Shown piece after piece: positions 16,892 through 46,650 of a DNA stretch of 64,000 bases. A model generated the notes under the pieces. That model was not told the origin of the DNA, made no database searches, and saw only the letters and a program-made list of their open reading frames with translations. Location of the stretch: the NCBI RefSeq assembly GCF_054482525.1, contig NZ_CM137006.1; one strand, 5' to 3'. A program made the position numbers and the translations under genes. Within the stretch, counting starts at the first letter, position 1. Each line of letters starts with the position of its first letter.

Positions 16892-17983
16892 ATGCGTTTT
16901 CTGCGCCGACCAATATCGCTGCGCCAACGGCTGATATTGACCATCGGGGCCATTTTGTTGGTGTTTGAGCTGATCAGCGTCTTCTGGCTATGGCATGAAA
17001 GTACCGAGCAGATTCAGCTGTTTGAGCAGGCGCTACGCGACAATCGCAACAACGATCGCCACATCATGCGTGAGATCCGCGAGGCGGTCGCCAGCCTGAT
17101 CGTCCCCGGCGTCTTTATGGTCAGCCTGACGCTATTTATCTGCTATCAGGCGGTACGCCGCATCACCCGCCCGCTGGCGGAGCTGCAAAAAGAGCTGGAA
17201 GCGCGCACCGCCGACAATTTAACGCCTATTGCCATTCACAGTGCCACCCTCGAAATCGAAGCGGTGGTTTCGGCGTTAAACGATCTGGTCAGTCGCCTGA
17301 CCAACACGCTGGATAACGAAAGGTTGTTTACCGCTGACGTCGCGCATGAACTGCGAACGCCACTGGCGGGGGTGCGTTTGCATCTGGAACTGCTGGCGAA
17401 AACGCATCACATTGATGTAGCACCGTTAGTGGCACGGCTTGATCAGATGATGGAGAGTGTCTCCCAGCTACTGCAACTGGCGCGTGCCGGACAGTCATTT
17501 TCTTCCGGGAATTATCAACATGTAAAACTGCTGGAAGATGTCATTCTCCACTCGTATGACGAACTCAGTACCATGCTCGACCAGCGACAGCAAAACCTGC
17601 TATTGCCAGAGAGCGCCGCCGACATCACCGTTCAGGGTGATGCAACCCTGCTGCGGATGTTATTGCGAAACCTGGTAGAAAACGCCCATCGTTACAGCCC
17701 GCAAGGCAGCAACATTATGATTAAGCTGCAAGAAGATGGCGGAGCGGTCATGGCCGTTGAAGATGAAGGACCGGGTATTGATGAGAGTAAATGCGGGGAG
17801 TTGAGTAAAGCGTTTGTACGTATGGACAGCCGTTATGGCGGGATTGGTCTGGGGTTAAGTATTGTCAGCCGCATTACACAGTTGCATCACGGGCAGTTTT
17901 TCCTGCAAAACCGGCAAGAGACTTCTGGCACGCGGGCCTGGGTACGGCTGAAGAAAGATCAGTACGTGGCAAACCAGATATAA
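16892..17983 (+). CDS. basS: Sensor histidine kinase BasS (PmrB), 363 aa
   Basis: H-box ADVAHELRTPL and ATPase motifs; start taken at ATG 16892 (the listed ORF begins at an upstream TTG). Confidence 0.9.
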   Translation: MRFLRRPISLRQRLILTIGAILLVFELISVFWLWHESTEQIQLFEQALRDNRNNDRHIMREIREAVASLIVPGVFMVSLTLFICYQAVRRITRPLAELQKELEARTADNLTPIAIHSATLEIEAVVSALNDLVSRLTNTLDNERLFTADVAHELRTPLAGVRLHLELLAKTHHIDVAPLVARLDQMMESVSQLLQLARAGQSFSSGNYQHVKLLEDVILHSYDELSTMLDQRQQNLLLPESAADITVQGDATLLRMLLRNLVENAHRYSPQGSNIMIKLQEDGGAVMAVEDEGPGIDESKCGELSKAFVRMDSRYGGIGLGLSIVSRITQLHHGQFFLQNRQETSGTRAWVRLKKDQYVANQI

Positions 17984-18048
17984 AGAAAGCTGCTGACCAC
18001 CAGCACGCTGAACACGGTAGTTAAACTTTCATAAACACGGTTTTTCAT
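17959..18048 (-). CDS. pmrR: Small membrane peptide PmrR, 29 aa (MKNRVYESLTTVFSVLVVSSFLYIWFATY)
   Basis: Short ORF on minus strand with RBS ggagag upstream; I recognise the peptide as PmrR; its 3-prime end overlaps the basS 3-prime end on the opposite strand. Confidence 0.65.
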   Translation of the reverse strand: MKNRVYESLTTVFSVLVVSSFLYIWFATY

Positions 18049-18118
18049 TGCACTCTCCTCCGTTAACCTGGAGGAGAGTATGCGCGTCAGAGATTAAGTG
18101 AACCTTAAGAGTTCAATT

Positions 18119-23766: not shown

Positions 23767-23782
23767 TTGTATTGTGATCGGT

Positions 23783-23862
23783 AAGCCGGATAAGGCGCTC
23801 GCGCCGCATCCGGCAACGATGCCGACAGCCTGATGCGACGCTGACCGCGTCTTATCAGGCTT
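23783..23862. repeat. REP/BIME cluster (two REP palindromes)
   Basis: gccggataaggcgctcgcgccgcatccggc and gcctgatgcgacgctgaccgcgtcttatcaggc motifs. Confidence 0.75.
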
Positions 23863-25314: not shown

Positions 25315-26331
25315 ATGAACGCTAAGATAATTGCCTCGCTGGCCTTCACCAGCATGTTCAGCCTCAGCACCCTGTTAAGCCCGGCGCACGCCGAAGAGCA
25401 GGAAAAGGCGTTGAATTTCGGCATTATTTCAACGGAATCACAGCAAAACCTGAAACCGCAATGGACGCCGTTCTTACAGGATATGGAGAAGAAGCTGGGC
25501 GTAAAGGTCAACGCCTTCTTTGCCCCGGACTACGCGGGCATTATCCAGGGGATGCGCTTCAATAAAGTGGATATCGCCTGGTACGGCAATCTGTCGGCGA
25601 TGGAAGCGGTGGATCGCGCCAACGGTCAGGTCTTCGCCCAGACGGTCGCGGCGGATGGATCGCCGGGTTACTGGAGCGTGTTGATCGTCAACAAAGATAG
25701 TCCGATCAACAACCTGAACGATCTGCTGGCGAAGCGTAAAGATCTCACCTTCGGCAATGGCGATCCTAACTCCACCTCTGGCTTCCTCGTCCCCGGCTAC
25801 TACGTCTTCGCCAAAAACAATATCTCCGCCAGCGACTTCAAGCGCACCGTCAACGCCGGGCATGAAACCAACGCGCTGGCCGTCGCCAACAAGCAGGTGG
25901 ATGTGGCGACCAACAACACCGAAAACCTCGACAAGCTGAAAACCTCCGCACCGGAGAAGCTCAAAGAACTGAAGGTGATCTGGAAATCGCCGCTGATCCC
26001 AGGCGATCCGATCGTCTGGCGCAAAAATCTGTCCGAAACCACCAAAGACAAGATCTACGACTTCTTTATGAACTACGGCAAAACGCCGGAAGAGAAAGCG
26101 GTGCTGGAGCGCCTGGGCTGGGCCCCGTTCCGCGCCTCCAGCGACCTGCAACTGGTGCCGATTCGCCAGCTCGCGCTGTTTAAAGAGATGCAGGGCGTGA
26201 AAGGCAATAAAGGGCTGAATGAGCAGGACAAGCTGGCAAAAACCACCGAGATTCAGGCGCAGCTGGATGACCTGGACCGCCTGAACAACACGTTAAGCGC
26301 GATGAGTTCGGTAAGTAAAGCGGTGCAGTAA
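25315..26331 (+). CDS. phnD: Phosphonate ABC transporter periplasmic binding protein PhnD, 338 aa
   Basis: Signal peptide then binding-protein fold; operon position. Confidence 0.92.
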   Translation: MNAKIIASLAFTSMFSLSTLLSPAHAEEQEKALNFGIISTESQQNLKPQWTPFLQDMEKKLGVKVNAFFAPDYAGIIQGMRFNKVDIAWYGNLSAMEAVDRANGQVFAQTVAADGSPGYWSVLIVNKDSPINNLNDLLAKRKDLTFGNGDPNSTSGFLVPGYYVFAKNNISASDFKRTVNAGHETNALAVANKQVDVATNNTENLDKLKTSAPEKLKELKVIWKSPLIPGDPIVWRKNLSETTKDKIYDFFMNYGKTPEEKAVLERLGWAPFRASSDLQLVPIRQLALFKEMQGVKGNKGLNEQDKLAKTTEIQAQLDDLDRLNNTLSAMSSVSKAVQ

Positions 26332-26334
26332 TGT

Positions 26335-26452
26335 GCTCGATCGGTCCCCTCTCCCTTGAGGGAGAGGGTTAGGGTGAGGGGGAAATGCGCACGCTGATGC
26401 CCTCACCCCGGCCCTCTCCCACAGGGAGAGGGAGAAAACATTAAACGGAGCA
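26335..26452. repeat. GC-rich palindromic intergenic repeat (Box C/RSA-like; units cccctctccc…gggagaggg and ccctcacccc)
   Basis: Read directly; a permuted inverted copy occurs at 35336..35490. Confidence 0.7.
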
Positions 26453-26456
26453 ATAT

Positions 26457-27236
26457 ATGCAAACCATCACCATCGCCCCACCCAAGCGCAGCTGGTTCGC
26501 GCTTCTGAGCTGGGCCATTGTTCTCGCCGTGCTGGTCGTCTCGTGGCAGGGCGCGGAAATGGCCCCGCTCACGCTGATTAAAGGCGGCGGCAACATGGCG
26601 ACGTTCGCCGCCGACTTCTTCCCGCCCGATTTCAGCCAGTGGCAGGATTACCTCACCGAAATGGCCGTCACGCTGCAAATCGCCGTCTGGGGCACCGCGC
26701 TGGCGGTGGTTCTCTCCATCCCCTTTGGCCTGATGAGCGCCGAAAACCTGGTGCCGTGGTGGGTTTACCAGCCCGTTCGCCGCCTGATGGACGCCTGCCG
26801 CGCCATTAACGAGATGGTCTTCGCCATGCTGTTCGTGGTCGCCGTCGGTCTCGGTCCGTTCGCTGGCGTACTGGCGCTGTTTATCCACACCACCGGCGTG
26901 CTCTCCAAACTGCTTTCCGAAGCGGTAGAAGCAATTGAACCCGGCCCGGTGGAAGGTATTCGCGCCACCGGTGCCAACAAGCTCGAAGAGATCCTCTACG
27001 GCGTGCTGCCGCAGGTGATGCCGCTGCTGATCTCCTACTCCCTCTATCGCTTCGAATCCAACGTCCGTTCGGCCACCGTTGTTGGCATGGTCGGCGCGGG
27101 CGGGCTCGGCGTCACCCTGTGGGAAGCGATTCGCGGTTTCCAGTTCCAGCAAACCTGCGCCCTGATGGTGCTGATTATCGTCACTGTCAGCCTGCTGGAT
27201 TTCCTCTCTCAACGGTTGCGTAAGCACTTTATCTGA
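26457..27236 (+). CDS. phnE: Phosphonate ABC transporter permease PhnE, uninterrupted 259 aa ORF
   Basis: Continuous ORF with EAA-type permease region; no frameshift seen. Confidence 0.88.
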
Positions 27237-27256
27237 TAAGCGAGGCATTGATAGCT

Positions 27257-27982
27257 ATGCACTTGTCTACACATCCGACCAGCTACCCAACACGCTATCA
27301 GGAGATAGCCGCAAAACTTGAGCAGGAGCTTCGTCAACACTACCGCTGCGGCGACTATCTTCCCGCCGAGCAGCAACTGGCGGCGCGCTTTGAGGTGAAC
27401 CGCCACACCCTGCGCCGCGCCATCGACCAACTGGTGGAAAAAGGCTGGGTACAGCGCCGTCAGGGCGTCGGCGTGCTGGTGCTGATGCGCCCGTTCGATT
27501 ACCCGCTCAACGCCCAGGCGCGTTTTAGCCAGAACCTGCTGGATCAGGGCAGCCATCCCACCAGCGAAAAACTGCTGTCTGTGCTGCGCCCGGCCTCCGG
27601 TCACGTCGCTGACGCGCTGGGGATAACCGAAGGCGAGAACGTTATCCACCTGCGCACCCTGCGCCGGGTCAACGGCGTCGCGCTCTGTTTAATCGACCAC
27701 TACTTTGCGGACCTCACCCTCTGGCCGACGCTGCAACGCTTCGACAGCGGCTCGCTGCACGATTTTCTGCGCGAGCAAACGGGGATTGCGCTGCGCCGCA
27801 GCCAGACGCGGATCAGCGCCCGCCGCGCCCAGGCCAAAGAGTGCCAGCGTCTTGAAATCCCGAATATGTCGCCGCTGCTGTGCGTGCGCACCCTTAACCA
27901 CCGTGACGGTGAAAGCAGCCCGGCGGAGTACTCCGTCAGCCTGACGCGCGCCGACATGATTGAATTCACTATGGAGCACTGA
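27257..27982 (+). CDS. phnF: GntR-family repressor PhnF, 241 aa
   Basis: N-terminal winged HTH, UTRA-like C-terminus; start at MHLSTHP. Confidence 0.9.
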   Translation: MHLSTHPTSYPTRYQEIAAKLEQELRQHYRCGDYLPAEQQLAARFEVNRHTLRRAIDQLVEKGWVQRRQGVGVLVLMRPFDYPLNAQARFSQNLLDQGSHPTSEKLLSVLRPASGHVADALGITEGENVIHLRTLRRVNGVALCLIDHYFADLTLWPTLQRFDSGSLHDFLREQTGIALRRSQTRISARRAQAKECQRLEIPNMSPLLCVRTLNHRDGESSPAEYSVSLTRADMIEFTMEH

Positions 27983-28435
27983 ATGCACGCAGATACCGCG
28001 ACCCGCCAGCACTGGATGTCCGTACTGGCACACAGCCAACCGGCTGAACTGGCAGCCCGCCTGAAGGCGCTGAACATCACTGCCGACTATGAAGTAATCC
28101 GCGCCGCTGAAACCGGCCTGGTGCAGATTCAGGCGCGGATGGGTGGCACCGGCGAACGCTTTTTTGCTGGCGACGCCACGCTCACCCGCGCCGCCGTACG
28201 CCTGACTGACGGCACGCTCGGCTACAGCTGGGTGCTGGGGCGCGACAAACAGCACGCCGAACGCTGCGCGCTGATCGACGCGCTGATGCAGCAAACCCGC
28301 CATTTTCAAAACTTATCAGAAACTCTTATTGCCCCGCTGAACGCTGACCGTATGGCACGCATTGCCGCACGCCAGGCCGAAGTAAACGCCAGCCGGGTCG
28401 ACTTCTTTACGATGGTTCGCGGAGATAACGCATGA
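27983..28435 (+). CDS. phnG: C-P lyase core complex subunit PhnG, 150 aa
   Basis: Operon position and length; start abuts phnF stop. Confidence 0.9.
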
Positions 28436-29016
28436 CCCTGGAAACCGCTTTTATGCTTCCCGTGCAGGATGCCCAGCACAGTTTTCGTCGCCTGTTAAAG
28501 GCCATGAGCGAGCCGGGCGTGATTGTCGCCCTGCATCAGCTCAAGCGCGGCTGGCAGCCGCTGAATATCGCCACCACCAGCGTGCTGCTGACGCTGGCCG
28601 ATAACGACACGCCGGTGTGGCTTTCTGCGCCATTAAGTAACGATATCGTCAGCCAGAGCCTGCGTTTTCATACCAACGCGCCGCTGGTCAGCCAGCCGGA
28701 ACTGGCGACCTTCGCGGTAACGGATGAGGCGATTTCCAGCGAACAGCTCAACGCTCTTTCCAGCGGCACCGCTGTTGCGCCGGAAGCGGGCGCGACGCTG
28801 ATTTTACAGGTCGTCAGCCTGAGCGGCGGGCGCATGCTGCGCCTTACTGGCGCGGGTATTGCCGAAGAACGAATGATCGCTCCGCAGCTGCCGGAGTGCA
28901 TTCTGCACGAACTCACCGAGCGCCCGCACCCGTTCCCGCTCGGCATCGACCTGATCCTGACCTGCGGCGAGCGGCTGCTGGCTATCCCGCGAACCACTCA
29001 TGTGGAGGTGTGCTGA
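28432..29016 (+). CDS. phnH: C-P lyase core complex subunit PhnH, 194 aa
   Basis: 4-bp overlap with phnG; operon position. Confidence 0.9.
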
Positions 29017-30080
29017 TGTACGTTGCCGTGAAAGGGGGCGAGAAGGCGATCGACGCCGCCCACGCCCTGCAAGAGAGCCGACGCCGGGGCAATACCGATT
29101 TGCCTGAACTGAGCGTCGCCCAGATTGAACAGCAGCTTAACCTTGCGGTGGATCGCGTGATGACCGAAGGCGGCATTGCCGACCGCGAACTGGCGGCGCT
29201 GGCGCTGAAACAGGCCAGCGGCGATAACGTCGAAGCGATTTTCCTGCTGCGCGCCTACCGCACCACGCTGGCGAAGCTCGCGGTAAGCGAGCCGCTCGAC
29301 ACCACGGAGATGCGCTTCGAACGGCGTATTTCAGCGGTTTATAAAGATATTCCCGGCGGTCAGTTGCTTGGCCCAACCTACGACTACACCCATCGCCTGC
29401 TCGATTTCACCCTGCTGGCAAACGGCGAAGCGCCGACGCTGACCACCGCCGACAGCGCACAACAGCCGTCGCCGCACGTTTTCAGCCTGCTGGCGCGTCA
29501 GGGGCTGGCGAAGTTTGAGGAGGATAGCGGCGCACAGCCGGATGACATCACCCGCACGCCGCCGGTTTACCCCTGCTCACGCTCCTCCCGCCTGCAACAA
29601 TTAATGCGCGGGGACGAAGGCTATTTGCTGGCGCTGGCCTACTCCACCCAGCGTGGTTACGGGCGCAATCACCCGTTCGCGGGCGAGATCCGCAGTGGCT
29701 ATATCGACGTGTCTATTGTGCCGGAAGAGCTGGGATTTGCGGTGAACGTCGGCGAACTGCTGATGACCGAATGTGAAATGGTCAACGGTTTTATCGACCC
29801 GCCGGATGAGCCGCCGCACTTCACGCGCGGCTACGGACTGGTGTTCGGCATGAGCGAGCGCAAAGCGATGGCAATGGCGCTGGTTGACCGTGCGTTGCAG
29901 GCTCCGGAGTACGGCGAGCACGCGACAGGCCCGGCGCAGGATGAAGAGTTCGTGCTGGCGCATGCCGACAACGTCGAAGCCGCAGGCTTTGTCTCGCACC
30001 TCAAACTCCCCCACTACGTCGATTTCCAGGCCGAACTGGAGCTACTCAAATGTCTGCAACAGGAGCAGAACCATGGCTAA
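29016..30080 (+). CDS. phnI: C-P lyase subunit PhnI (ribosyl-triphosphate forming), 354 aa
   Basis: Start at ATG 29016 ([16 protein letters not shown]…), overlapping phnH stop; the listed ORF starts at an upstream GTG. Confidence 0.9.
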   Translation: MYVAVKGGEKAIDAAHALQESRRRGNTDLPELSVAQIEQQLNLAVDRVMTEGGIADRELAALALKQASGDNVEAIFLLRAYRTTLAKLAVSEPLDTTEMRFERRISAVYKDIPGGQLLGPTYDYTHRLLDFTLLANGEAPTLTTADSAQQPSPHVFSLLARQGLAKFEEDSGAQPDDITRTPPVYPCSRSSRLQQLMRGDEGYLLALAYSTQRGYGRNHPFAGEIRSGYIDVSIVPEELGFAVNVGELLMTECEMVNGFIDPPDEPPHFTRGYGLVFGMSERKAMAMALVDRALQAPEYGEHATGPAQDEEFVLAHADNVEAAGFVSHLKLPHYVDFQAELELLKCLQQEQNHG

Positions 30081-30918
30081 TCTGAGCGGCTACAACTTTG
30101 CTTACCTCGACGAGCAGACCAAACGCATGATCCGCCGCGCCATCTTAAAAGCGGTGGCGATCCCCGGTTATCAGGTGCCGTTTGGCGGGCGCGAGATGCC
30201 GATGCCGTACGGCTGGGGAACTGGTGGTATCCAGCTAACCGCCAGCGTGATTGGCGAAAGCGACGTGTTGAAGGTGATTGACCAGGGCGCGGATGACACC
30301 ACCAACGCCGTGTCGATTCGCAACTTCTTTAAGCGCGTGACCGGGGTAAACACCACTGAACGTACGGACGATGCGACGCTTATCCAGACGCGCCACCGCA
30401 TCCCCGAAACGTCGCTGACCGAAGATCAGATCATTATTTTCCAGGTACCGATCCCCGAACCGATGCGCTTTATCGAGCCGCGCGAAACGGAGACCCGCAC
30501 TATGCACGCGCTGGAGGAGTACGGCGTGATGCAGGTGAAGCTGTATGAAGATATCGCCCGCTTCGGTCATATCGCCACCACCTATGCCTATCCGGTGAAG
30601 GTGAACGGGCGCTACGTGATGGACCCGTCGCCGATCCCGAAATTCGATAACCCGAAAATGGACATGATGCCCGCCCTGCAACTGTTCGGCGCGGGGCGCG
30701 AGAAGCGCATCTATGCGGTGCCGCCGTTTACCCGCGTGGAAAGCCTCGATTTCGACGATCACCCGTTCACCGTTCAGCAGTGGAATGAGCCATGCGCCAT
30801 CTGCGGATCGACCCACAGCTATCTTGATGAAGTGGTGCTGGATGACGCCGGAAACCGCATGTTTGTCTGCTCCGATACCGATTATTGCCGCCAACAGAGC
30901 GAGGCGAAAAGCCAATGA
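30073..30918 (+). CDS. phnJ: C-P lyase catalytic subunit PhnJ (radical SAM-like, Cys-rich C-terminus), 281 aa
   Basis: MANLSGYNFAYLDEQTKRMIRRA…; C-terminal CxxC…C…C cluster. Confidence 0.92.
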   Translation: MANLSGYNFAYLDEQTKRMIRRAILKAVAIPGYQVPFGGREMPMPYGWGTGGIQLTASVIGESDVLKVIDQGADDTTNAVSIRNFFKRVTGVNTTERTDDATLIQTRHRIPETSLTEDQIIIFQVPIPEPMRFIEPRETETRTMHALEEYGVMQVKLYEDIARFGHIATTYAYPVKVNGRYVMDPSPIPKFDNPKMDMMPALQLFGAGREKRIYAVPPFTRVESLDFDDHPFTVQQWNEPCAICGSTHSYLDEVVLDDAGNRMFVCSDTDYCRQQSEAKSQ

Positions 30919-31673
30919 ATCAACCGTTACTTTCGGTCAATAACCTGACCCACCTTTACGCGCCGGGCAAAGGCTTTAGCGATGTCTCTTTTGATTTATG
31001 GCCGGGGGAAGTGCTGGGCATTGTCGGGGAGTCCGGCTCCGGGAAGACCACGCTGCTGAAATCAATCTCCGCGCGCCTGACGCCGCAGCAGGGGGAGATT
31101 CGCTATGAAAACCGCTCCCTCTATGGCATGAGCGAAGCCGACCGCCGCCGTTTACTGCGCACCGAATGGGGCGTGGTACATCAGCATCCGCTCGACGGCC
31201 TGCGCCGCCAGGTGTCGGCAGGCGGCAATATCGGCGAGCGGCTGATGGCGACCGGGGCGCGTCATTACGGCGACATCCGCGCCACCGCGCAGAAGTGGCT
31301 GGAGGAGGTGGAGATTCCCTCCAACCGGATCGACGACCTGCCGACCACCTTTTCCGGCGGTATGCAGCAACGTTTGCAGATTGCCCGCAACCTGGTGACG
31401 CATCCGAAGCTGGTGTTTATGGACGAGCCAACCGGCGGGCTGGATGTATCGGTACAGGCGCGCCTGCTCGATCTGCTGCGCGGTCTGGTGGTGGAGCTGA
31501 ATCTGGCGGTGGTGATTGTCACCCACGATCTGGGCGTCGCCCGCCTGCTGGCGGACCGTTTGCTGGTGATGAAACAGGGGCAAGTGGTGGAGAGTGGGTT
31601 AACCGACCGCGTGCTCGACGACCCGCATCATCCGTATACCCAGCTGCTGGTGTCATCGGTTTTGCAGAATTGA
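30915..31673 (+). CDS. phnK: ABC-type ATPase PhnK, 252 aa
   Basis: Walker [10 protein letters not shown]; start at [15 protein letters not shown]. Confidence 0.9.
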
Positions 31674-31677
31674 GCCA

Positions 31678-31765
31678 GTGCCGGATACGGCGTAAACGCC
31701 TTATCCGGCCGACAAATGCGCTCCCCGTAGGTCGGATAAGACGCGTCAGCGTCGCATCCGACACC
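31678..31765. repeat. REP/BIME cluster inside phn operon (between phnK and phnL)
   Basis: gccggatacggcgtaaacgccttatccggcc and gtaggtcggataagacgcgtcagcgtcgcatccgac palindromes. Confidence 0.8.
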
Positions 31766-31783
31766 CGAACCACGAGGCGAAAA

Positions 31784-32464
31784 ATGATTAACGTACAAAA
31801 CGTCAGTAAAACCTTCATCCTGCACCAGCAAAACGGCGTGCGCCTGCACGTCTTACAACGTGCCTCGCTCACCGTCAACGCAGGCGAATGCGTGGTGCTC
31901 CACGGCCACTCCGGCAGTGGAAAATCAACCCTGCTACGCTCGCTGTACGCCAACTATCTGCCCGATGAAGGTCAAATCCAGATCAAACACGGTGATGAGT
32001 GGGTAGACCTGATCACCGCGCCAGCCCGCAAAGTGGTGGAGATCCGCAAAACCACCATCGGCTGGGTGAGCCAGTTTCTGCGCGTCATCCCGCGTATTTC
32101 GGCACTGGAAGTGGTGATGCAGCCTCTGCTCGATACCGGCGTACCGCGTGAAGCCTGCGCCGCTAAAGCCGCGCGTCTGCTCACCCGCCTGAACGTGCCT
32201 GAACGCCTGTGGCACCTGGCACCATCGACCTTCTCCGGCGGCGAACAGCAGCGCGTCAACATCGCCCGTGGCTTTATCGTCGACTATCCGATTCTGCTGC
32301 TCGACGAACCTACCGCCTCGCTGGACGCTAAAAACAGCGCCGCCGTAGTGGAACTGATCCGCGAAGCCAAAGCCCGCGGCGCGGCCATCGTCGGTATCTT
32401 CCATGACGAAGCCGTACGCAATGACGTCGCCGACCGCCTGCACCCGATGGGAGCCTCTTCATGA
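31784..32464 (+). CDS. phnL: ABC-type ATPase PhnL, 226 aa
   Basis: [11 protein letters not shown]…, Walker [10 protein letters not shown]; start at ATG 31784. Confidence 0.9.
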
Positions 32465-33597
32465 TTATCAATAACGTCAAACTGGTGCTGGAAAATGAAG
32501 TGGTGCACGGTTCACTGGAAGTACAGGATGGCGAAATTCGGGCCTTTGCCGAAAGCCAGAGCCGCCAGCCGGAAGCGATGGACGGCGAAGGTGGCTGGCT
32601 ACTGCCCGGACTGATTGAGCTGCATACCGACAACCTCGATAAATTCTTCACCCCGCGCCCGAAAGTCGACTGGCCCGCCCATTCGGCGATGAGCAGCCAC
32701 GACGCGCTGATGGTGGCAAGCGGCATCACCACCGTACTGGACGCCGTGGCGATTGGTGATGTGCGCGACGGCGGCGATCGGCTGGAGAATCTGGAGAAGA
32801 TGATCAACGCCATCGAAGAGACGCAGAAACGCGGCGTCAACCGCGCCGAGCACCGCCTGCACCTGCGCTGCGAACTGCCGCACCACACCACGTTGCCGCT
32901 GTTTGAAAAACTGGTGCAGCGCGAACCGGTGACGCTGGTATCGCTGATGGACCACTCGCCAGGCCAGCGCCAGTTCGCCAATCGCGAGAAGTATCGCGAA
33001 TATTATCAGGGCAAATATTCCCTCACCGATGCGCAGATGCAGCAGTACGAAGAAGAGCAATTGGCGCTCGCCGCACGCTGGTCGCAGCCAAATCGCGAAA
33101 CCATCGCCGCAATGTGCCGCGCGCGACACATTGCCCTCGCCAGCCACGATGACGCCACGCACGCCCACGTTGCCGAATCTCACCAGCTTGGCAGCGTGAT
33201 CGCCGAATTTCCCACCACGTTCGAAGCGGCAGAAGCCTCGCGCAAGCATGGCATGAACGTGCTGATGGGCGCGCCGAATATCGTGCGCGGCGGTTCGCAC
33301 TCCGGCAACGTGGCGGCCAGTGAACTGGCGCAGCTTGGCCTGCTGGATATCCTCTCTTCCGACTACTACCCCGCCAGCCTGCTCGATGCGGCATTTCGCG
33401 TCGCCGATGACGAGAGCAACCGCTTTACGCTGCCGCAGGCGGTGAAGCTGGTGACTAAAAATCCGGCGCAGGCGCTTAATCTTCAGGATCGCGGAGTGAT
33501 TGGCGAGGGCAAACGCGCCGACCTGGTGCTGGCGCATCGCAAGGGCAACCACATTCATATCGACCACGTCTGGCGTCAGGGTAAAAGGGTGTTCTGA
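32461..33597 (+). CDS. phnM: Amidohydrolase-family PhnM (ribosyl-triphosphate diphosphohydrolase), 378 aa
   Basis: Metal-dependent hydrolase motifs (HTD…); operon position. Confidence 0.9.
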
Positions 33598-34154
33598 TGA
33601 CGGGAAAACTGATTTGGTTAATGGGGGCCTCTGGCTCCGGAAAAGACAGTCTGTTGACGGAACTTCGCCAGCGGGAACAAACTCAGCTACTGGTAGCGCA
33701 TCGCTACATCACGCGCGCCGCCAGCGCCGGAAGTGAAAACCATATCGCCCTGAGCGAGCAGGAGTTTTTTACCCGCGCGGGGCAGAACCTTCTGGCCTTA
33801 AGCTGGCACGCTAACGGTCTGTATTATGGCGTCGGCGTCGAGATTGACCTCTGGCTGCACGCCGGATTCGACGTGCTGGTCAACGGCTCACGCGCGCATT
33901 TGCCGCAGGCGCGGGCGCGCTATCAATCGGCGCTGCTGCCCATTTGCTTACAGGTTTCGCCGGAGATCCTGCGCCAGCGCCTGGAAAACCGTGGTCGTGA
34001 AAACGCCAGTGAAATTAACGCCCGGCTGGCGCGCGCCGCCCGCTATACTCCTCAGGATTGCCATACGCTCAATAATGACGGCAGCCTGCGCCAGTCGGTC
34101 GACACGCTGCTGACGCTGATTCATCAGAAGGAGAAACACCATGCCTGCTTGTGA
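33597..34154 (+). CDS. phnN: Ribose 1,5-bisphosphate phosphokinase PhnN, 185 aa
   Basis: P-loop GASGSGKDS; operon position. Confidence 0.9.
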
Positions 34155-34575
34155 GCTTCGCCCGGCCACGCAGTACGATACCGACGCAGTGTACGCGCTG
34201 ATTTGTGAGCTAAAACAGGCGGAGTTTGACCACCACGCGTTTCGCGTGGGCTTTAACGCCAACCTGCGCGACCCGAACATGCGCTACCATCTGGCGCTGC
34301 TGGATGGCGAAGTTGTCGGCATGATCGGCCTGCATTTGCAGTTTCATCTGCATCATGTCAACTGGATCGGCGAAATTCAGGAACTGGTGGTGATGCCGCA
34401 GGCGCGCGGTCTGAATGTCGGCAGTAAATTACTGGCATGGGCAGAAGAAGAAGCCCGCCAGGCCGGGGCCGAAATGACCGAGCTTTCCACCAACGTGAAG
34501 CGCCACGACGCGCACCGTTTCTATCTGCGCGAAGGCTACGAGCAGAGCCACTTCCGCTTCACCAAGGCGCTGTAA
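34141..34575 (+). CDS. phnO: GNAT aminoalkylphosphonate N-acetyltransferase PhnO, 144 aa
   Basis: GNAT-like motifs; 14-bp overlap with phnN. Confidence 0.9.
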
Positions 34576-34576
34576 C

Positions 34577-35335
34577 ATGAGCCTGACCCTCACACTTACT
34601 GGCACTGGCGGCGCACAGGGCGTTCCGGCATGGGGCTGCGAGTGCGTGGCCTGCGCCAGAGCGCGGCGCTCACCGCAGTATCGCCGCCAGCCATGCAGCG
34701 GCGTCGTGAAGTTTAACGACGCGATCACCCTGATCGACGCCGGGCTGCACGATCTCGCCGATCGCTGGTCGCCCGGATCGTTCCAGCAGTTTTTGCTGAC
34801 GCACTACCATATGGATCACGTGCAGGGGCTGTTTCCGCTGCGCTGGGGTGTGGGCGATTCGATCCCGATCTACGGCCCGCCGGATGAACAGGGCTGCGAC
34901 GATCTGTTTAAACATCCGGGCCTGCTTGATTTCAGCCACACGATGGAACCGTTTGTGGTGTTTGATTTACAGGGGTTACAGGTCACGCCCCTGCCGCTCA
35001 ACCACTCAAAACTGACCTTCGGTTATCTGCTGGAAACGGCACACAGCCGGGTGGCGTGGCTGTCTGACACCGCTGGCTTGCCGGAAAAAACGCTGAAATT
35101 TTTACGCAATAATCAGCCGCAGGTAATGGTGATTGATTGCAGCCACCCGCCGCGCGAGGATGCACCGCGTAATCACTGTGATTTAAATACCGTGCTTGCG
35201 CTGAATCAGGTTATCCGCTCGCCACGGGTGATTCTGACCCATATCAGCCACCAGTTTGATGCGTGGCTGATGGAAAACGCACTGCCGTCGGGGTTTGAGG
35301 CGGGGTTTGATGGGATGGAGATTGGGGTGGCGTGA
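34577..35335 (+). CDS. phnP: Metallo-beta-lactamase-fold phosphodiesterase PhnP, 252 aa
   Basis: HxHxDH motif ([10 protein letters not shown]). Confidence 0.9.
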
Positions 35336-35490
35336 TGGGAGGGAATGTGCGCGCTGGCCCCCTCACCCTAACCCTCTCCCCAGAGGGGCGAGGGGACCGA
35401 TTGTGCTCGATATTGAATATTGCGCTGGTTTTCTCCCTCGCCCCATTGGGGAGAGGGCCGGGGTGAGGGGCGATGCCTGCTCCATACCCA
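35336..35490. repeat. GC-rich palindromic intergenic repeat, inverted and module-permuted relative to 26335..26452
   Basis: Shares cccctcaccc / ccctctcccc / gggagaggg / gtgctcgat modules with the phnD-phnE repeat. Confidence 0.7.
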
Positions 35491-35493
35491 ACA

Positions 35494-35823
35494 TCAACGC
35501 CCATACTCATCTTCCATTCTCCGCTCTTCATCTTCTAGCTGCCGACGCTCCTGATCCAGCTGGCGCTGGCGATCGTCCAGCTGCCTGCGGCGATCTTCAA
35601 ACTGGCGGCGGCGATCGTCATATTGTCTGCGCCGATCGTCGTTCACTTCACGCTGCCAGCCGTCGTCGCGCGAATCTTCATAGTCTCGCCCACGGTCAGG
35701 GTTATAAGCGTCGTTAATCGCCTGCTGAATATTGCCAATGGTGTCGTCGATAATATCGGCCTGGGCCGGAACGGTGGACAGCGTGAGCAGGGTGAATAAA
35801 AGAAATAGCGGAAAGCGTTTCAT
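35494..35823 (-). CDS. yjdP: Small secreted Arg/Asp/Glu-rich protein YjdP, 109 aa
   Basis: Signal peptide MKRFPLFLLFTLLTLSTVPAQA followed by charged low-complexity RRRQ repeats. Confidence 0.8.
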   Translation of the reverse strand: MKRFPLFLLFTLLTLSTVPAQADIIDDTIGNIQQAINDAYNPDRGRDYEDSRDDGWQREVNDDRRRQYDDRRRQFEDRRRQLDDRQRQLDQERRQLEDEERRMEDEYGR

Positions 35824-35891: not shown

Positions 35892-36226
35892 TCAATTTCT
35901 CCGCTGCTCTATTGCCGTAATCGCCTCCACGCGTTGTTGATGACGACCGCCTTCGTACTGCGCGCCCAGCCACGCATCCACAATCATTTTTGCCAGTTCG
36001 AGGCCAACCACTCGTGAACCAAAAGCCAGTGCAACTTCACTGGCGTAATGCGGATAATCAGTACGCTCTGACGACCTGGTTTCTTTATCAATCCCCTCAC
36101 TCATTGACCATGAATAAAAGGCTGGCACAGCAACGCAGAATCCTGCGGTGCCAGCGACATGACCGCCCATTGCTCCGGTACGTTTTTTAATAAAAAACAC
36201 CGGTTGCATTGATTAATTGTGCTCAG
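35892..36226 (-). pseudogene. rpiB: rpiB (ribose-5-phosphate isomerase B) remnant: C-terminal about 67 codons recognisable, internal segment missing, 5-prime part unrelated
   Basis: Translation ends …AFGSRVVGLELAKMIVDAWLGAQYEGGRHQQRVEAITAIEQRRN which I recognise as the RpiB C-terminus; …SSERTDYPHYAS… is also present, but the segment between (with the catalytic Cys) is absent and the N-terminal 38 codons do not resemble RpiB. Confidence 0.5.
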
Positions 36227-36241
36227 GGTAATGACTCCAAC

Positions 36242-36745
36242 TTATTGATAGTGTTTTATGTTCAGATAATGCCCGATGACTTTGTCATGCAGCTCCACCG
36301 ATTTTGAGAACGACAGCGACTTCCGTCCCAGCCGTGCCAGGTGCTGCCTCAGATTCAGGTTATGCCGCTCAATTCGCTGCGTATATCGCTTGCTGATTAC
36401 GTGCAGCTTTCCCTTCAGGCGGGATTCATACAGCGGCCAGCCATCCGTCATCCATATCACCACGTCAAAGGGTGACAGCAGGCTCATAAGACGCCCCAGC
36501 GTCGCCATAGTGCGTTCACCGAATACGTGCGCAACAACCGTCTTCCGGAGACTGTCATACGCGTAAAACAGCCAGCGCTGGCGCGATTTAGCCCCGACAT
36601 AGCCCCACTGTTCGTCCATTTCCGCGCAGACGATGACGTCACTGCCCGGCTGTATGCGCGAGGTTACCGACTGCGGCCTGAGTTTTTTAAGTGACGTAAA
36701 ATCGTGTTGAGGCCAACGCCCATAATGCGGGCAGTTGCCCGGCAT
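36242..36745 (-). CDS. insB: IS1 InsB frame, 167 aa (expressed as InsAB-prime transposase by -1 frameshift)
   Basis: Translation matches IS1 InsB; overlaps insA 3-prime end around the ttaaaaaactc slippery motif. Confidence 0.9.
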
Positions 36746-36939
36746 CCAACGCCATTCATGGCCATATCAATGATTTTCTGGTGCGTACCGGGTTGAGAAG
36801 CGGTGTAAGTGAACTGCAGTTGCCATGTTTTACGGCAGTGAGAGCAGAGATAGCGCTGATGTCCGGCGGTGCTTTTGCCGTTACGCACCACCCCGTCAGT
36901 AGCTGAACAGGAGGGACAGCTGATAGAAACAGAAGCCAC
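36664..36939 (-). CDS. insA: IS1 InsA, 91 aa
   Basis: [43 protein letters not shown]… zinc-finger/HTH protein of IS1. Confidence 0.92.
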
Positions 36940-37238
36940 TGGAGCACCTCAAAAACACCATCATACACTAAATCAGTAAGTTGGCAGCATCACCTGTGCT
37001 CAGTATTTGCCGAAGTACAATATATATAATAAATATATAAAACACCTCATATTATTTACAGAGATAATAAATTCGCGTACTTTTCCCTCTTCAGCACAAA
37101 TGCCTAATAAAGTGGCGCGTTCAGCTCACACTTCTACTTATTAAAGTCGCAATTTCCCAATTATGATAACGCCAGCTTTAAATGACGTATTTTGCATGGA
37201 TTACATATTTACGACATAAATGATAAATGGAGATTTAT

Positions 37239-39224
37239 ATGAATAACTCTCGGTTATTCCGTTTGAGCAGGATTGTTATTGCGTTAACTGCCGCCAGCGG
37301 CATGATGGTAAATACCGCTTACGCAACAGATGAAGCGAAAGCCGCCACTCAATATACCCAACAGATTAATCAGAATTACGCCAAATCATTACCTTTTAGC
37401 GATCGTCAAGATTTTGACGATGCCCAGCGTGGATTTATCGCTCCGCTGCTGGATGAAGGTATTCTGCGTGATGCTAACGGCAAAGTTTACTACCGCGCAG
37501 ACGATTACAAATTTGATATTAATGCCGCTGCGCCGGAAACCGTAAACCCCAGCCTGTGGCGTCAGTCGCAAATCAACGGTATTTCTGGCCTGTTCAAAGT
37601 CACCGATAAAATGTATCAGGTGCGCGGCCAGGATATCTCTAACATTACGTTCGTTGAGGGCGAGAAAGGCATTATTGTTATCGACCCGCTGGTGACGCCG
37701 CCTGCCGCAAAAGCCGCACTTGATCTTTACTTCCAGCATCGTCCGCAAAAACCGATTGTTGCTGTGATTTACACCCACAGCCACGCCGACCATTATGGCG
37801 GTGTGAAAGGCATTATCTCTGAAGCGGATGTTAAATCCGGCAAAGTGCAGGTGATCGCTCCGGCAGGCTTTATGGACGAAGCCATCAGCGAAAACGTGCT
37901 GGCGGGTAACATCATGAGCCGCCGTGCGCTCTACTCTTACGGTCTGTTACTGCCGCACAACGCGCAAGGCAACGTGGGCAACGGCCTGGGCGTGACGCTG
38001 GCAACCGGCGACCCGAGCATTATTGCACCGACTAAAACTATCGTCAGAACTGGCGAGAAGATGATTATCGACGGCCTGGAGTTTGACTTCCTGATGACTC
38101 CGGGTAGCGAAGCGCCAGCCGAAATGCACTTCTATATTCCGGCCCTGAAAGCCCTGTGTACCGCCGAGAACGCCACGCATACCCTGCACAACTTCTACAC
38201 TCTGCGCGGCGCGAAAACCCGCGATACCAGCAAGTGGACCGAGTACCTGAACGAAACGCTGGATATGTGGGGTAACGACGCGGAAGTACTGTTTATGCCG
38301 CACACCTGGCCGGTCTGGGGCAATAAGCATATCAATGATTATATTGGTAAATATCGCGATACTATCAAGTACATTCACGACCAGACCCTGCACCTGGCGA
38401 ACCAGGGCTACACCATGAATGAAATCGGCGACATGATTAAGCTGCCGCCTGCGCTTGCCAATAACTGGGCCAGCCGCGGCTATTACGGTTCTGTCAGCCA
38501 CAACGCCCGCGCGGTGTATAACTTCTATCTTGGCTATTACGACGGTAACCCGGCTAACCTGCATCCATATGGTCAGGTGGAGATGGGTAAACGTTACGTG
38601 CAAGCTCTGGGCGGTTCTGCCCGCGTCATCAACCTGGCGAAAGAAGCGAACAAGCAAGGTGATTATCGCTGGTCGGCAGAACTGCTGAAACAGGTGATTG
38701 CCGCCAACCCTGGTGACCAGGTCGCGAAGAATCTGCAAGCGAATAACTTTGAACAGCTGGGCTATCAGGCCGAGTCCGCCACCTGGCGCGGTTTCTACCT
38801 GACCGGCGCGAAAGAGCTGCGCGAAGGGGTGCATAAATTCAGCCACGGCACCACCGGTTCCCCGGACACCATTCGCGGAATGTCGGTCGAAATGCTGTTC
38901 GACTTTATGTCCGTTCGCCTCGATAGTGCGAAAGCCGCGGGTAAAAATATCAGCCTGAACTTCAATATGAGCAACGGCGATAACCTCAACCTGACGCTGA
39001 ACGATAGCGTGCTTAACTACCGTAAAACGCTGCAACCTGAAGCCAACGCCTCTTTCTACATCAGCCGTGAAGATCTTCACGCCGTGCTGACCGGACAAGC
39101 CAAAATGGCGGATCTGGTAAAAGCGAAGAAAGCCAAAATTATTGGCAATGGCGCGAAACTGGAAGAAATTATTGCCTGTCTGGATAATTTCGATTTGTGG
39201 GTGAATATCGTAACCCCAAATTAA
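37239..39224 (+). CDS. yjcS: Metallo-beta-lactamase-fold alkyl/aryl-sulfatase YjcS, 661 aa
   Basis: Signal peptide, [10 protein letters not shown] metal-binding motif, C-terminal SCP2-like region; start at MNNSRLF. Confidence 0.88.
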
Positions 39225-44502: not shown

Positions 44503-46650
44503 ATGAAAAAAGTCGTCACGGTTTGCCCCTATTGCGCATCAGGTTGCAAAATCAACCTGGTCGTCGATAACGGCAAAATCGTCCGGGCGGAGGCAGCGCA
44601 GGGGAAAACCAACCAGGGTACCCTGTGTCTGAAGGGTTATTATGGCTGGGATTTCATTAACGATACCCAGATCCTGACCCCGCGCCTGAAAACCCCCATG
44701 ATCCGTCGCCAGCGTGGCGGCAAACTCGAACCTGTTTCCTGGGATGAGGCACTGAATTACGTTGCCGAGCGCCTGAGCGCCATCAAAGAGAAGTACGGTC
44801 CGGATGCCATCCAGACGACCGGCTCCTCGCGTGGTACGGGTAACGAAACCAACTATGTAATGCAAAAATTTGCGCGCGCCGTTATTGGTACCAATAACGT
44901 TGACTGCTGCGCTCGTGTCTGACACGGCCCATCGGTTGCAGGTCTGCACCAATCGGTCGGTAATGGCGCAATGAGCAATGCTATTAACGAAATTGATAAT
45001 ACCGATTTAGTGTTCGTTTTCGGGTACAACCCGGCGGATTCCCACCCAATCGTGGCGAACCACGTAATTAACGCTAAACGTAACGGGGCGAAAATTATCG
45101 TCTGCGATCCGCGCAAAATTGAAACCGCGCGCATTGCTGACATGCACATTGCACTGAAAAACGGCTCGAACATCGCGCTGTTGAATGCGATGGGCCATGT
45201 CATTATTGAAGAAAATCTGTACGACAAAGCATTCGTCGCTTCCCGTACAGAAGGCTTTGAAGAGTATCGTAAAATCGTTGAAGGCTACACGCCGGAGTCG
45301 GTTGAAGATATCACCGGCGTCAGCGCCAATGAGATTCGTCAGGCGGCACGGATGTATGCCCAGGCGAAAAGCGCCGCCATCCTGTGGGGCATGGGTGTAA
45401 CCCAGTTCTACCAGGGCGTGGAAACCGTGCGTTCTCTGACCAGCCTCGCGATGCTGACCGGTAACCTCGGTAAGCCACATGCGGGTGTTAACCCGGTTCG
45501 TGGTCAGAACAACGTACAGGGTGCCTGCGATATGGGCGCGCTGCCGGATACGTATCCGGGATACCAGTACGTGAAAGATCCGGCTAACCGCGAGAAATTC
45601 GCCAAAGCCTGGGGCGTGGAAAGCCTGCCTGCTCATACCGGTTATCGCATCAGCGAGCTGCCGCACCGCGCAGCGCATGGTGAAGTGCGTGCCGCGTACA
45701 TTATGGGCGAAGATCCGCTGCAAACTGACGCGGAGCTGTCGGCAGTACGTAAAGCCTTTGAAGATCTGGAACTGGTTATCGTTCAGGACATCTTTATGAC
45801 CAAAACCGCGTCGGCGGCGGATGTTATTTTACCGTCAACGTCGTGGGGCGAGCATGAAGGCGTGTTTACTGCGGCTGACCGTGGCTTCCAGCGTTTCTTC
45901 AAAGCGGTTGAACCGAAGTGGGATCTGAAAACGGACTGGCAGATTATCAGTGAAATCGCCACTCGTATGGGTTATCCGATGCACTACAACAACACCCAGG
46001 AGATCTGGGATGAGTTGCGTCATCTGTGCCCGGATTTCTACGGTGCGACTTACGAGAAAATGGGCGAACTGGGCTTCATTCAGTGGCCTTGCCGCGATAC
46101 TTCAGATGCCGATCAGGGGACTTCTTATCTGTTTAAAGAGAAGTTTGATACCCCGAACGGTCTGGCGCAGTTCTTCACCTGCGACTGGGTAGCGCCAATC
46201 GACAAACTCACCGACGAGTACCCGATGGTACTGTCAACGGTGCGTGAAGTTGGTCACTACTCTTGCCGTTCGATGACCGGTAACTGTGCGGCACTGGCGG
46301 CGCTGGCTGATGAACCTGGCTACGCACAAATCAATACCGAAGACGCCAAACGTCTGGGTATTGAAGATGAGGCATTGGTTTGGGTGCACTCGCGTAAAGG
46401 CAAAATTATCACCCGTGCGCAGGTCAGCGATCGTCCGAACAAAGGGGCGATTTATATGACCTACCAGTGGTGGATTGGTGCCTGTAACGAGCTGGTTACC
46501 GAAAACTTAAGCCCGATTACGAAAACGCCGGAATACAAATACTGCGCCGTGCGCGTCGAGCCGATCGCCGATCAGCGCGCCGCCGAGCAGTACGTGATTG
46601 ACGAGTACAACAAGTTGAAAACTCGCCTGCGCGAAGCGGCACTGGCGTAA
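44503..46650 (+). CDS. fdhF: Formate dehydrogenase H (selenocysteine-containing molybdoenzyme) FdhF, 715 aa with in-frame UGA (Sec) at 44920..44922
   Basis: Two adjacent same-frame ORFs (44503..44922 and 44971..46650) joined by a TGA; N-terminal 4Fe-4S Cys motif CPYCASGC; SECIS hairpin follows the TGA. Confidence 0.93.
44920..44970 (+). other. SECIS element: UGA plus downstream stem-loop (cacggcccatcggttgcaggtctgcaccaatcggtcgg)
   Basis: Matches the fdhF SECIS hairpin as I recall it; positioned immediately 3-prime of the in-frame TGA. Confidence 0.8.

Follow-up and report, generated by a model that had tools for sequence, protein, structure and literature searches.

Introduction

The E. coli chromosome contains dispersed copies of BoxC, a long-established repeat that is non-coding and located outside genes. 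As quoted in PMC2267715, the original element was 56 bp long and present in 32 copies (consensus in Bergler 1992 and Bachellier 1999). Holder et al. (2015, PMC4666352) equated BoxC with the PIT element and with types A and B of the TMECO triplex motif, and the same repeats have been published as the G-quadruplex motifs HPG1 and HPG2 (Kaplan et al. 2016, PMC5100583). Where BoxC units are paired, type A is always joined by an inverted type B (PMC4666352), and the collapse of such pairs into simple hairpins has been called the "palindrome effect" (PMC4666352, PMC5100583). A survey of the copies in K-12 revealed no positional bias that would point to gene regulation (PMC4666352). According to the summary of the work of Hoyne and Maher given in the same paper, PIT elements have neither promoter nor terminator activity and do not affect RNA polymerase.

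The window analyzed here is a stretch of DNA of 64,000 nucleotides containing the phn region of E. coli. A sequence-only reading had noticed that the phnD-phnE and phnP-yjdP spacers share GC-rich palindromic modules in opposite orientation and in a different order, and had named Box C as a candidate family. Both observations were right. Each spacer contains one type-A and one type-B BoxC unit, inverted relative to each other, and all four units match the published types.

Results

Two BoxC doublets in the phn region

The genes and repeats of relevance are the following.

25315..26331, plus strand: phnD, phosphonate-binding protein of the periplasm; the BoxC doublet follows directly on its stop codon
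26332..26439, no strand: complete BoxC doublet, type A followed by inverted type B, convergent; a 108-bp unit with sharp ends that fills the phnD-phnE spacer
26332..26382, plus strand: BoxC type A (TMECO A / HPG1), with the same core as type A in PMC4666352 (Table 1)
26360-26380, plus strand: exact match to core GGGAGAGGGNNNGGGTGAGGG, TTA loop (type A)
26383..26399, no strand: centre of the phnD-phnE doublet, AAATGCGCACGCTGATG, containing the gcgcac module; apical loop of the long hairpin
26400..26439, minus strand: BoxC type B (TMECO B / HPG2), core match and canonical G-quadruplex motif
26400-26420, minus strand: exact match to core GGGAGAGGGNNNGGGTGAGGG, CCG loop (type B)
26457..27236, plus strand: phnE, permease, intact, 259 aa
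34577..35335, plus strand: phnP, last gene of the operon
35336..35493, no strand: entire spacer between the convergent genes phnP and yjdP; folds into a single long hairpin whichever strand is read
35344..35411, minus strand: BoxC type A, orthologous to K-12 TMECO no. 22 / HPGQ 51
35360-35380, minus strand: exact match to core GGGAGAGGGNNNGGGTGAGGG, TTA loop (type A)
35422..35470, plus strand: BoxC type B, divergent from the type-A unit
35449-35469, plus strand: exact match to core GGGAGAGGGNNNGGGTGAGGG, CCG loop (type B)
35494..35823, minus strand: yjdP, convergent with phnP

Both doublets are extragenic, lying between annotated genes. The phnE ribosome-binding site GGAG is located 11 nt 3' of the first doublet, and downstream of it phnE to phnP form a row of 12 genes on one strand, with short or overlapping junctions.

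The 21-nt core GGGAGAGGGNNNGGGTGAGGG has four exact matches in the window, all within the two spacers; shuffling predicts 0.01 matches, and none of 100 shuffles gave four. Pairwise BLAST of one spacer against the other resulted in two inverted matches, of 45 nt (91% identity, E 5e-14) and 42 nt (88%, E 3e-11), a similarity far beyond that of low-complexity GC runs. The longest exact matches are 23 and 21 bp in inverted and 10 bp in direct orientation. The 9-mer gtgctcgat has the same orientation in the two spacers and three matches in the window, where 0.62 are expected; alone it is not significant, as 4 of 100 shuffles reach three matches. This 9-mer is part of a degenerate, near-palindromic head-flank module of BoxC (G-Y-G-C-W-C), which is also present at other BoxC loci.

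The tripartite BoxC core is composed of a C-rich arm CCCTC(T/G)CCC, a short loop, GGGAGAGGG, a 3-nt loop that is TTA in type A and CCG in type B, and GGGTGAGGG, and all four units conform to it. The unit at 26332..26382 reads as head flank TGTGCTCGATCGGT, C-arm CCCCTCTCCC, loop TTGA, G-arm GGGAGAGGG, loop TTA and G-arm GGGTGAGGGGG, and its partner at 26400..26439, on the minus strand, as GTTTTCT, CCCTCTCCC, TGT, GGGAGAGGG, CCG and GGGTGAGGG. In the phnP-yjdP spacer, the unit at 35344..35411 has a tail flank at 35344-35357 (containing gcgcac on the minus strand), G-arms at 35358-35381, a C-arm at 35385-35394 and a head flank at 35396-35411, which contains gtgctcgat; the unit at 35422..35470 has head flank GCGCTGGTTTTCT, C-arm CCCTCGCCCC, a loop, and the G-arms GGGGAGAGGG-CCG-GGGTGAGGGG. 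The cores of both types are identical to those in Table 1 of PMC4666352, with the equivalence of BoxC and TMECO taken from that paper and not from a comparison with the original 56-bp consensus. The rule for BoxC pairs holds in both spacers, as A+/B- at phnD-phnE and A-/B+ at phnP-yjdP, and it is this convergent versus divergent arrangement that generates the pattern of permuted and inverted modules.

The phnP-yjdP copy of K-12 has been catalogued as TMECO no. 22 (4,314,285-4,314,320; PMC4666352) and as HPGQ 51 (PMC5100583), and the K-12 spacer aligns with that of the window, which links the latter to the catalogued copy. Because K-12 contains a REP pair at the phnD-phnE junction, the BoxC doublet located there is missing from K-12-based tables. 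The modules of the BoxC head and tail flanks recur at 11 other K-12 loci, and the family occupies a median of 13 and up to 26 places per E. coli genome. The RSA family, which has a 152-bp consensus and was also considered in the sequence-only reading, is not needed, as BoxC units and family flanks cover every module that had been listed. No Rfam family reached its gathering score in either spacer. At a permissive E-value, matches of the miRNA-precursor type were obtained; these were far under threshold and merely reflect the long hairpin.

The complete doublet is repeated elsewhere in E. coli

Over 108 bp, the phnD-phnE doublet and the K-12 doublet between hrpB and mrcB share 95.4% identity. 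The similarity begins at TGTGCTCGAT and ends at GAGAAAAC, and the centre AAATGCGCACGCTGATG corresponds to GAACGTGCGCGCTGATG at hrpB-mrcB. Thus, the whole inverted doublet, with sharp ends, is found at another locus, as is typical of REPINs, and it would behave as a REPIN-like unit of dispersal.

Holder et al. did not find a mobilising enzyme for BoxC (PMC4666352). We clustered 614 ORFs located no farther than 1.5 kb from one of 141 motif copies in 14 genomes of other phyla; in this limited set the largest cluster had six members from four genomes, and no protein family was recurrent. Matches to BoxC were found in 4 of 50,697 phage records and 424 of 72,556 plasmid records, several of the best plasmid matches listed being megabase-size records filed as plasmids; these two collections thus gave no sign of carriage on mobile elements. 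Among the matches listed, the tripartite core (its 18 specified bases exact, preceded by a similar C-rich arm) occurs in many phyla, with flanks that are genome-specific.

Alleles of the two spacers

Allele counts were obtained with flank-anchored queries; the bare spacer also matches other BoxC doublets (4,306 genomes at a coverage of at least 80%). Numbers for full doublets were estimated from ranks, their identity bands being inflated by short exact partial matches. A REP pair is present at the phnD-phnE junction in 3,876 of 5,426 E. coli genomes (71%), and most of the others contain collapsed BoxC hairpins, in spacers of 60, 61 and 67 nt; a further collapsed hairpin is inverted. All nine E. 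coli alleles sampled at this junction retain a hairpin with a folding energy of -23 kcal/mol or below. Beyond E. coli, a BoxC-like hairpin and a REP-like pair are present at the same junction in Enterobacter-type and Dryocola-type operons, and the spacer of an Enterobacteriaceae 4M9-type operon is only 23 nt long and has no hairpin.

The REP identity of the K-12 phnD-phnE spacer follows from its BLAST similarity to the naRNA4/REP325 region and the phnK-phnL REP pair of the window; a strict regular expression for the REP consensus gave no match. The K-12 spacer matches the window at 31679-31763, at 23778-23856 and at other sites, and neither at phnD-phnE nor at phnP-yjdP. Neither of these two spacers contains the REP consensus of the GCCGGATG...CTTATCCGGCCTAC type. 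A REP pair is also located between phnK and phnL in the window. The centre of the K-12 REP pair, AATGTGCAGGCGTTGATGCC, resembles that of the BoxC doublet, AATGCGCACGCTGATGCC, possibly by chance.

The phnP-yjdP spacer occurs in alleles of 146, 95, 76, 34 and 27 nt, and in K-12 its type-B unit has lost 12 bp. The deletion that produced the 76-nt allele lies between copies of the 9-bp direct repeat GAGGGGCGA, and, judged from the alignment, those of the 146- and 95-nt alleles also appear to be bounded by short repeats within the element. Alleles of 27-34 nt, which fold weakly, are found in about a quarter of the E. coli genomes by rank estimate. Both spacers are highly polymorphic, and all rearrangements seen are local to a single spacer. 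The doublet would thus decay through deletions between its own short repeats.

The 23-nt spacer of the 4M9-type operon and the weakly folding 27-34-nt alleles speak against a hairpin being obligatory at these sites, and so count against the REP-like role considered below.

The operon is not inverted in finished genomes

The sequence-only reading had also suggested that the two doublets, lying 9 kb apart, could mediate inversion of phnE-phnP. Such a switch would turn phosphonate use on or off. The required inverted homologous segments do exist in the form of the two BLAST matches described above, and BoxC loci are prone to rearrangement (PMC4666352). However, a chimeric query, in which the 3' end of phnD is followed by that of phnP in reverse complement, was contiguous in none of 5,397 complete E. 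coli genomes, and the corresponding deletion junction was absent from all 5,409 genomes screened. Moreover, the 23 and 21 bp of exact inverted identity are at the lower limit for RecA-dependent recombination, none of the rearrangements seen joins both spacers, and no recombinase gene is located in or beside the phnE-phnP segment, whose genes are all phn genes. Inversion would also have a cost: as no sigma-70-like promoter was detected within 26200-26600, it would sever 12 genes from the transcription that enters through phnC upstream.

In about 5,400 finished genomes there is no fixed repeat-mediated inversion of the operon. The proposal is not supported by these results and is largely refuted as a fixed polymorphism, and we give an inversion switch next to no credence. 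The fimS and hin switches likewise have inverted repeats around a DNA segment, but phnE-phnP contains neither a recombinase gene nor, in the stretches scanned, a promoter, and its other orientation is not found in any of the genomes.

Predicted RNA hairpins

As the sequence-only reading had anticipated, strong hairpins are predicted in both spacers. The RNA of the phnD-phnE doublet has a folding energy of -75.2 kcal/mol (z = -6.35), and that of the phnP-yjdP spacer -100.8 kcal/mol on the plus strand (z = -6.07) and -96.5 kcal/mol on the minus strand (z = -7.18). Neither spacer contains a hairpin followed by a T-run on either strand, no terminator-like site was found within the phnP-yjdP spacer, and a promoter scan detected nothing in either spacer.

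Such hairpins, to which the sequence-only reading gave a possible stabilising or attenuating role in transcripts, could be regulatory signals, the one at phnD-phnE reducing read-through into phnE-P and the one at phnP-yjdP acting as a bidirectional terminator. Their stability and, for the latter, the position between convergent genes would fit this role, and like Rho-independent terminators they are GC-rich stem-loops following a stop codon. Unlike those terminators, however, the doublets lack a U-tract and their stems are far longer (about 35-55 paired positions). The absence of terminator activity of PIT elements, as summarised in PMC4666352, also argues against it. In addition, strong termination at phnD-phnE would be costly, since 12 genes lie downstream and no sigma-70-like promoter was detected in the stretch scanned around the spacer. 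We therefore consider termination or attenuation as the role of the doublets the less likely possibility, and this explanation as a whole very improbable.

The REP elements that separate malE from malF increase the stability of the mRNA upstream of them. Transcribed BoxC doublets would fold into very stable hairpins without a U-tract, and their effect on phn expression would most likely resemble that of REP elements, namely a barrier to 3'-to-5' exonucleases. Such a barrier would shield the phnCD mRNA, which lies upstream, as compared with that of phnE-P, and at the other site it would shield the transcripts of the convergent genes phnP and yjdP at their 3' ends. A REP-like role is suggested by the presence of a REP pair at the same junction, by the hairpin kept in the sampled E. 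coli alleles, and by the BoxC-like and REP-like elements in relatives. Instead of selection, a hot spot for insertion could account for the repeated occupation of the phnD-phnE junction. The published negative tests of PIT elements and the lack of positional bias in K-12 also speak against this role.

Structures at the DNA level

No canonical G-quadruplex motifs other than the four BoxC sites are present in the window. Formation in vitro of triplexes and of G-quadruplexes or hairpins has been reported for identical sequences (PMC4666352, PMC5100583). The units might accordingly act as DNA, forming an intrastrand triplex or G-quadruplex that stalls replication or transcription and drives local instability, or that serves as a structural switch. 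The high polymorphism of both spacers and the conservation of the core across phyla, among the matches listed, are in line with this. However, in vivo DMS footprinting suggested that the triplex is formed little or only transiently, and, as far as reported in PMC4666352, an in vivo effect on polymerases was not found. The 76-nt allele arose by deletion between direct repeats and the others apparently between short repeats or hairpin arms, so that slippage at a palindrome suffices without triplex or G-quadruplex. The G-tracts of the doublets are, moreover, all paired in the long hairpin. Taken as a whole, an explanation based on non-B DNA is unlikely, although it deserves more weight than termination or inversion.

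Discussion

The repeats in the two spacers are catalogued BoxC elements and thus already known in kind. Core sequences, extragenic location and inverted A/B pairing are shared with the published BoxC, TMECO and HPG elements, and nothing essential differs. What distinguishes this strain is that the doublets are complete at both sites, whereas in K-12 the phnD-phnE junction is occupied by a REP pair and the type-B unit at phnP-yjdP is 12 bp shorter.

The explanation that we favour, and regard as probable, is that BoxC A/B doublets are dispersed as REPIN-like units and decay locally, that the two copies would neither act jointly nor invert the operon, and that their transcripts would form a REP-like barrier in RNA. 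BoxC resembles REP/BIME and REPIN elements in being extragenic, palindromic and dispersed, in forming inverted doublets that give long hairpins, and in occupying the same phnD-phnE junction. It differs from REP in showing no similarity to the REP consensus, in lacking a GTAG-type tetranucleotide, in having no associated RAYT-like transposase among the ORFs clustered here, and in its copy number of about 13-30 per genome as compared with hundreds for REP.

A broader combination of ideas can be formulated, to which we assign a rather low probability, slightly below that of the non-B DNA explanation. First, the A/B doublets of BoxC may replicate in the manner of REPINs, as units of about 108 bp with sharp ends that are inserted in either orientation and copied by a putative trans-acting factor. 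Second, the junction between the genes for the binding protein and the permease may be selected for some strong palindrome, with BoxC and REP as interchangeable RNA-stability modules. Third, a core shared across phyla together with genome-specific flanks would be indicative of a host factor that is conserved or of a structural requirement.

As the repeat is a catalogued one, the consequences for phn biology are small at present, and the tempting idea of an operon inversion switch is set aside as unsupported. BoxC does illustrate the puzzle of one tripartite core recurring in many phyla among the matches listed. Finally, the phnD-phnE junction offers a natural allelic series, comprising the BoxC doublet, collapsed hairpins, an inverted collapsed hairpin, the REP pair and, in a relative, an empty spacer; with this series it could be tested cleanly whether the PhnD:PhnE expression ratio is determined by these palindromes.

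The phnD-phnE and phnP-yjdP spacers each contain an inverted pair of BoxC units

The window covers part of an E. coli chromosome, with yjdM-yjdN, phnCDEFGHIJKLMNOP and yjdP; over the kilobase tested, it shares 99.8% identity with strain PCN033. The 21-nt pattern GGGAGAGGGNNNGGGTGAGGG is matched exactly at four sites in these 64 kb, against 0.01 expected by chance (shuffles), and all are located within the phnD-phnE (26332-26456) and phnP-yjdP (35336-35493) spacers. The same four sites are the only canonical G-quadruplex motifs in the window. In the phnD-phnE spacer, a copy with a TTA loop on the plus strand is followed by a copy with a CCG loop on the minus strand; in the phnP-yjdP spacer, a TTA copy on the minus strand is followed by a CCG copy on the plus strand. 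BLAST analysis of one spacer against the other aligned two segments in inverted orientation, one of 45 nt (91% identity) and one of 42 nt (88% identity), and the longest exact matches are 23 and 21 bp in inverted and 10 bp in direct orientation. The sequence-only reading that both spacers carry the same modules in opposite orientation therefore holds well beyond chance. The modules look permuted because each spacer consists of one TTA-type and one CCG-type unit in inverted configuration, tail-to-tail in phnD-phnE and head-to-head in phnP-yjdP.

That reading had named Box C and RSA as candidate families. The element is BoxC rather than REP, as borne out by the published motif, the pairing rule and the catalogued K-12 copy at phnP-yjdP, and BoxC units with their flanks account for every module without recourse to RSA. 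The motif was first named BoxC, then PIT, and then TMECO with types A (TTA) and B (CCG) (Holder et al., PMC4666352). The K-12 copy between yjdP and phnP is no. 22 in Table 1 of that paper (4,314,285-4,314,320), and in all five K-12 pairs type A is combined with type B in inverted configuration (PMC4666352). The yjdP-phnP copy of K-12 has also been described as a G-quadruplex motif of group HPG1, with the CCG form being HPG2 (Kaplan et al., PMC5100583), and BoxC has been quoted as 56 bp and 32 copies (PMC2267715). Rfam contains no family for the element.

The structure of the unit was derived from eleven further K-12 loci, with all units oriented. A unit starts with a head flank, G-Y-G-C-W-C plus 2-4 nt, followed by CGGT (type A) or TTTTCT (type B), and continues with CCCCTC(G/T)CCC(C), a loop of 3-4 nt, GGGAGAGGG, TTA or CCG, and GGGTGAGGG(G); the tail often holds a GCGCAC-like word. 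The modules “gtgctcgat” and “gcgcac” are therefore flanks of the family, carried by the head flank and tail of the shared unit. Because the hexamer of the head flank is close to a palindrome (GTGCTC in one copy, GAGCAC in another), “gtgctcgat” has the same orientation in both spacers despite the inversion of the adjacent units; as a bare 9-mer, its match between the spacers is not significant.

The doublet is repeated as a whole

The inverted A and B pair (doublet) at 26332-26439 matches the hrpB-mrcB doublet of K-12 at 95.4% identity over 108 bp. The similarity starts exactly at TGTGCTCGAT and stops at GAGAAAAC, and the flanks are unrelated. The phnD-phnE doublet resembles this copy far more than it does the phnP-yjdP doublet, 9 kb distant, and it behaves like a REPIN doublet in that the whole unit is repeated with sharp ends. 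Its centre (26383-26399, AATGCGCACGCTGATGCC) resembles that of the REP pair present at the same site in K-12 (AATGTGCAGGCGTTGATGCC), a likeness that could be due to chance.

In 14 genomes of other phyla, no protein family was recurrent in the vicinity of 141 copies, and a mobilising gene was not found by Holder et al. either (PMC4666352). Phage records are essentially devoid of the element (4 of 50,697), and 424 of 72,556 plasmid records matched it. A wider scan for the exact core was performed with one genome per species. Among the matches listed are assemblies of Alpha-, Gamma- and Deltaproteobacteria, Verrucomicrobia, Nitrospirales, Armatimonadota and Candidatus Gracilibacteria; in almost every one of these copies the core is preceded by a C-rich arm, and the flanks are genome-specific. 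These multi-phylum matches agree with the literature, in which over 260 genomes are reported to contain the motif. One Candidatus Gracilibacteria assembly has at least 17 core copies, with AT-rich visible flanks, and in an uncultured bacterium (MAG GL140) the tripartite core forms part of two longer repeat families (about 80-90 nt), which are highly conserved and have an additional hairpin of their own.

Other features of the window

The phn operon of the window contains three palindromic-repeat stations of two families. Besides the spacers, the following features were identified:

17952-18117, minus strand: sRNA STnc630 (Rfam match), unrelated to BoxC
23784-23861, plus strand: naRNA4 (CssrE; Rfam match, 85.5 bits), between the ORFs corresponding to yjdM and yjdN, a short distance upstream of the phn operon
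31680-31763: REP pair inside the operon, between phnK and phnL (-49 kcal/mol)
36242-36939, minus strand: IS1 element with InsA and InsB domains (Pfam), between a truncated rpiB remnant (35892-36209) and yjcS (37227-39224)
44915-44969, plus strand: selenocysteine insertion element SECIS_2 (Rfam match), unrelated to BoxC

The naRNA4 RNA has its origin in the REP325 cluster. A coordinate offset of about 765 bp suggests that the IS1 element is not present in PCN033, the closest genome. The als operon, next to rpiB in K-12, is missing from the window. The phnE gene (26457-27236) is intact and encodes 259 aa; that of K-12 is annotated as a pseudogene (phnE1). In some E. coli protein records phnE is extended upstream across the repeat-bearing spacer (284 aa), and these are probably annotation artefacts.

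The phnE-phnP segment is not found inverted

It had been proposed that the inverted repeats could flip phnE-phnP. A chimeric query for this junction, made of 400 bp from the 3' end of phnD followed by the terminal 400 bp of phnP in reverse complement, was run against 5,426 complete E. coli genomes. The two halves were contiguous in none of the 5,397 matching genomes, and the deletion junction, phnD joined to yjdP, was found in 0 of 5,409. Moreover, the exact inverted identity between the spacers is only 23 bp, the segment contains no recombinase, and its inversion would cut twelve genes off from transcription entering from upstream. These results give no support to inversion as a standing polymorphism; rare inversion events may still occur.

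Both junctions vary between E. coli genomes

The K-12 allele at phnD-phnE, present in 3,876 of the 5,426 genomes, is not BoxC but a REP pair (14232-14336 of the K-12 locus), similar to the naRNA4/REP325 region and the phnK-phnL REP pair of the window. Unrelated palindromic repeats occupy the same junction in different strains. BoxC-derived alleles are present in about 1,231 genomes, of which about 275-354, judging from ranks, have the full doublet as in the window; the remainder retain one collapsed hairpin in a spacer of 60, 61 or 67 nt. In the alignments, these deletions appear to lie between repeated arms. One genome (NRZ105822) has the collapsed hairpin in place in the opposite orientation, and in another single genome the REP pair is partly deleted.

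At least six length alleles exist at phnP-yjdP (158, 146, 95, 76, 34 and 27 nt). Few genomes have the full 158-nt form, and the majority form is that of K-12, in which the type-B unit lacks 12 bp. The 76-nt form results from a deletion between the 9-bp direct repeat GAGGGGCGA, and in the alignment short repeats also seem to bound the deletions of the 146- and 95-nt forms. The 27-nt form (MSHS 133) resembles only the flank at the A-unit tail and may be an empty site or a clean excision. This length variation is the same instability and “palindrome effect” already reported for the BoxC family (PMC4666352).

The spacers are predicted to form strong hairpins

RNA folding bears out the proposed hairpins: -75.2 kcal/mol (z = -6.35) for phnD-phnE, and -100.8 (plus strand) and -96.5 kcal/mol (minus strand) for phnP-yjdP, because the A and B units pair as inverted copies. 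The hairpin interpretation is structurally sound on these predictions. Of the two functions proposed, stabilising or attenuating, published experiments on PIT elements weigh against the latter, having detected neither promoter or terminator activity nor an effect on RNA polymerase, and little or only transient formation of the triplex was suggested by footprinting in vivo (PMC4666352). In addition, neither spacer has a T-run after the hairpin on either strand.

In each of the nine E. coli phnD-phnE alleles sampled, the stretch separating the phnD stop codon from the ribosome-binding site of phnE contains a hairpin no weaker than -23 kcal/mol. Between malE and malF, likewise a binding-protein gene and membrane-component genes, REP elements keep 3' exonucleases from degrading the upstream message. 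The doublets would, by analogy, most likely act as a REP-like RNA barrier, although the recurrent repeats at phnD-phnE could equally well reflect a shared insertion hot spot. The site has been occupied repeatedly across genera, since the spacers of relatives differ: 52 nt with a CCCTCTCCC-GGT-GGGAGAGGG hairpin in the Enterobacter type, a 94-nt REP-like pair in the Dryocola type, and an empty 23-nt spacer without a hairpin in the Enterobacteriaceae 4M9 type. This empty spacer shows that a hairpin at phnD-phnE is not required.

The kind of element, the A/B pairing and the instability of BoxC are already known, and the interest of the finding is therefore limited. One practically useful by-product is the natural allelic series at phnD-phnE.
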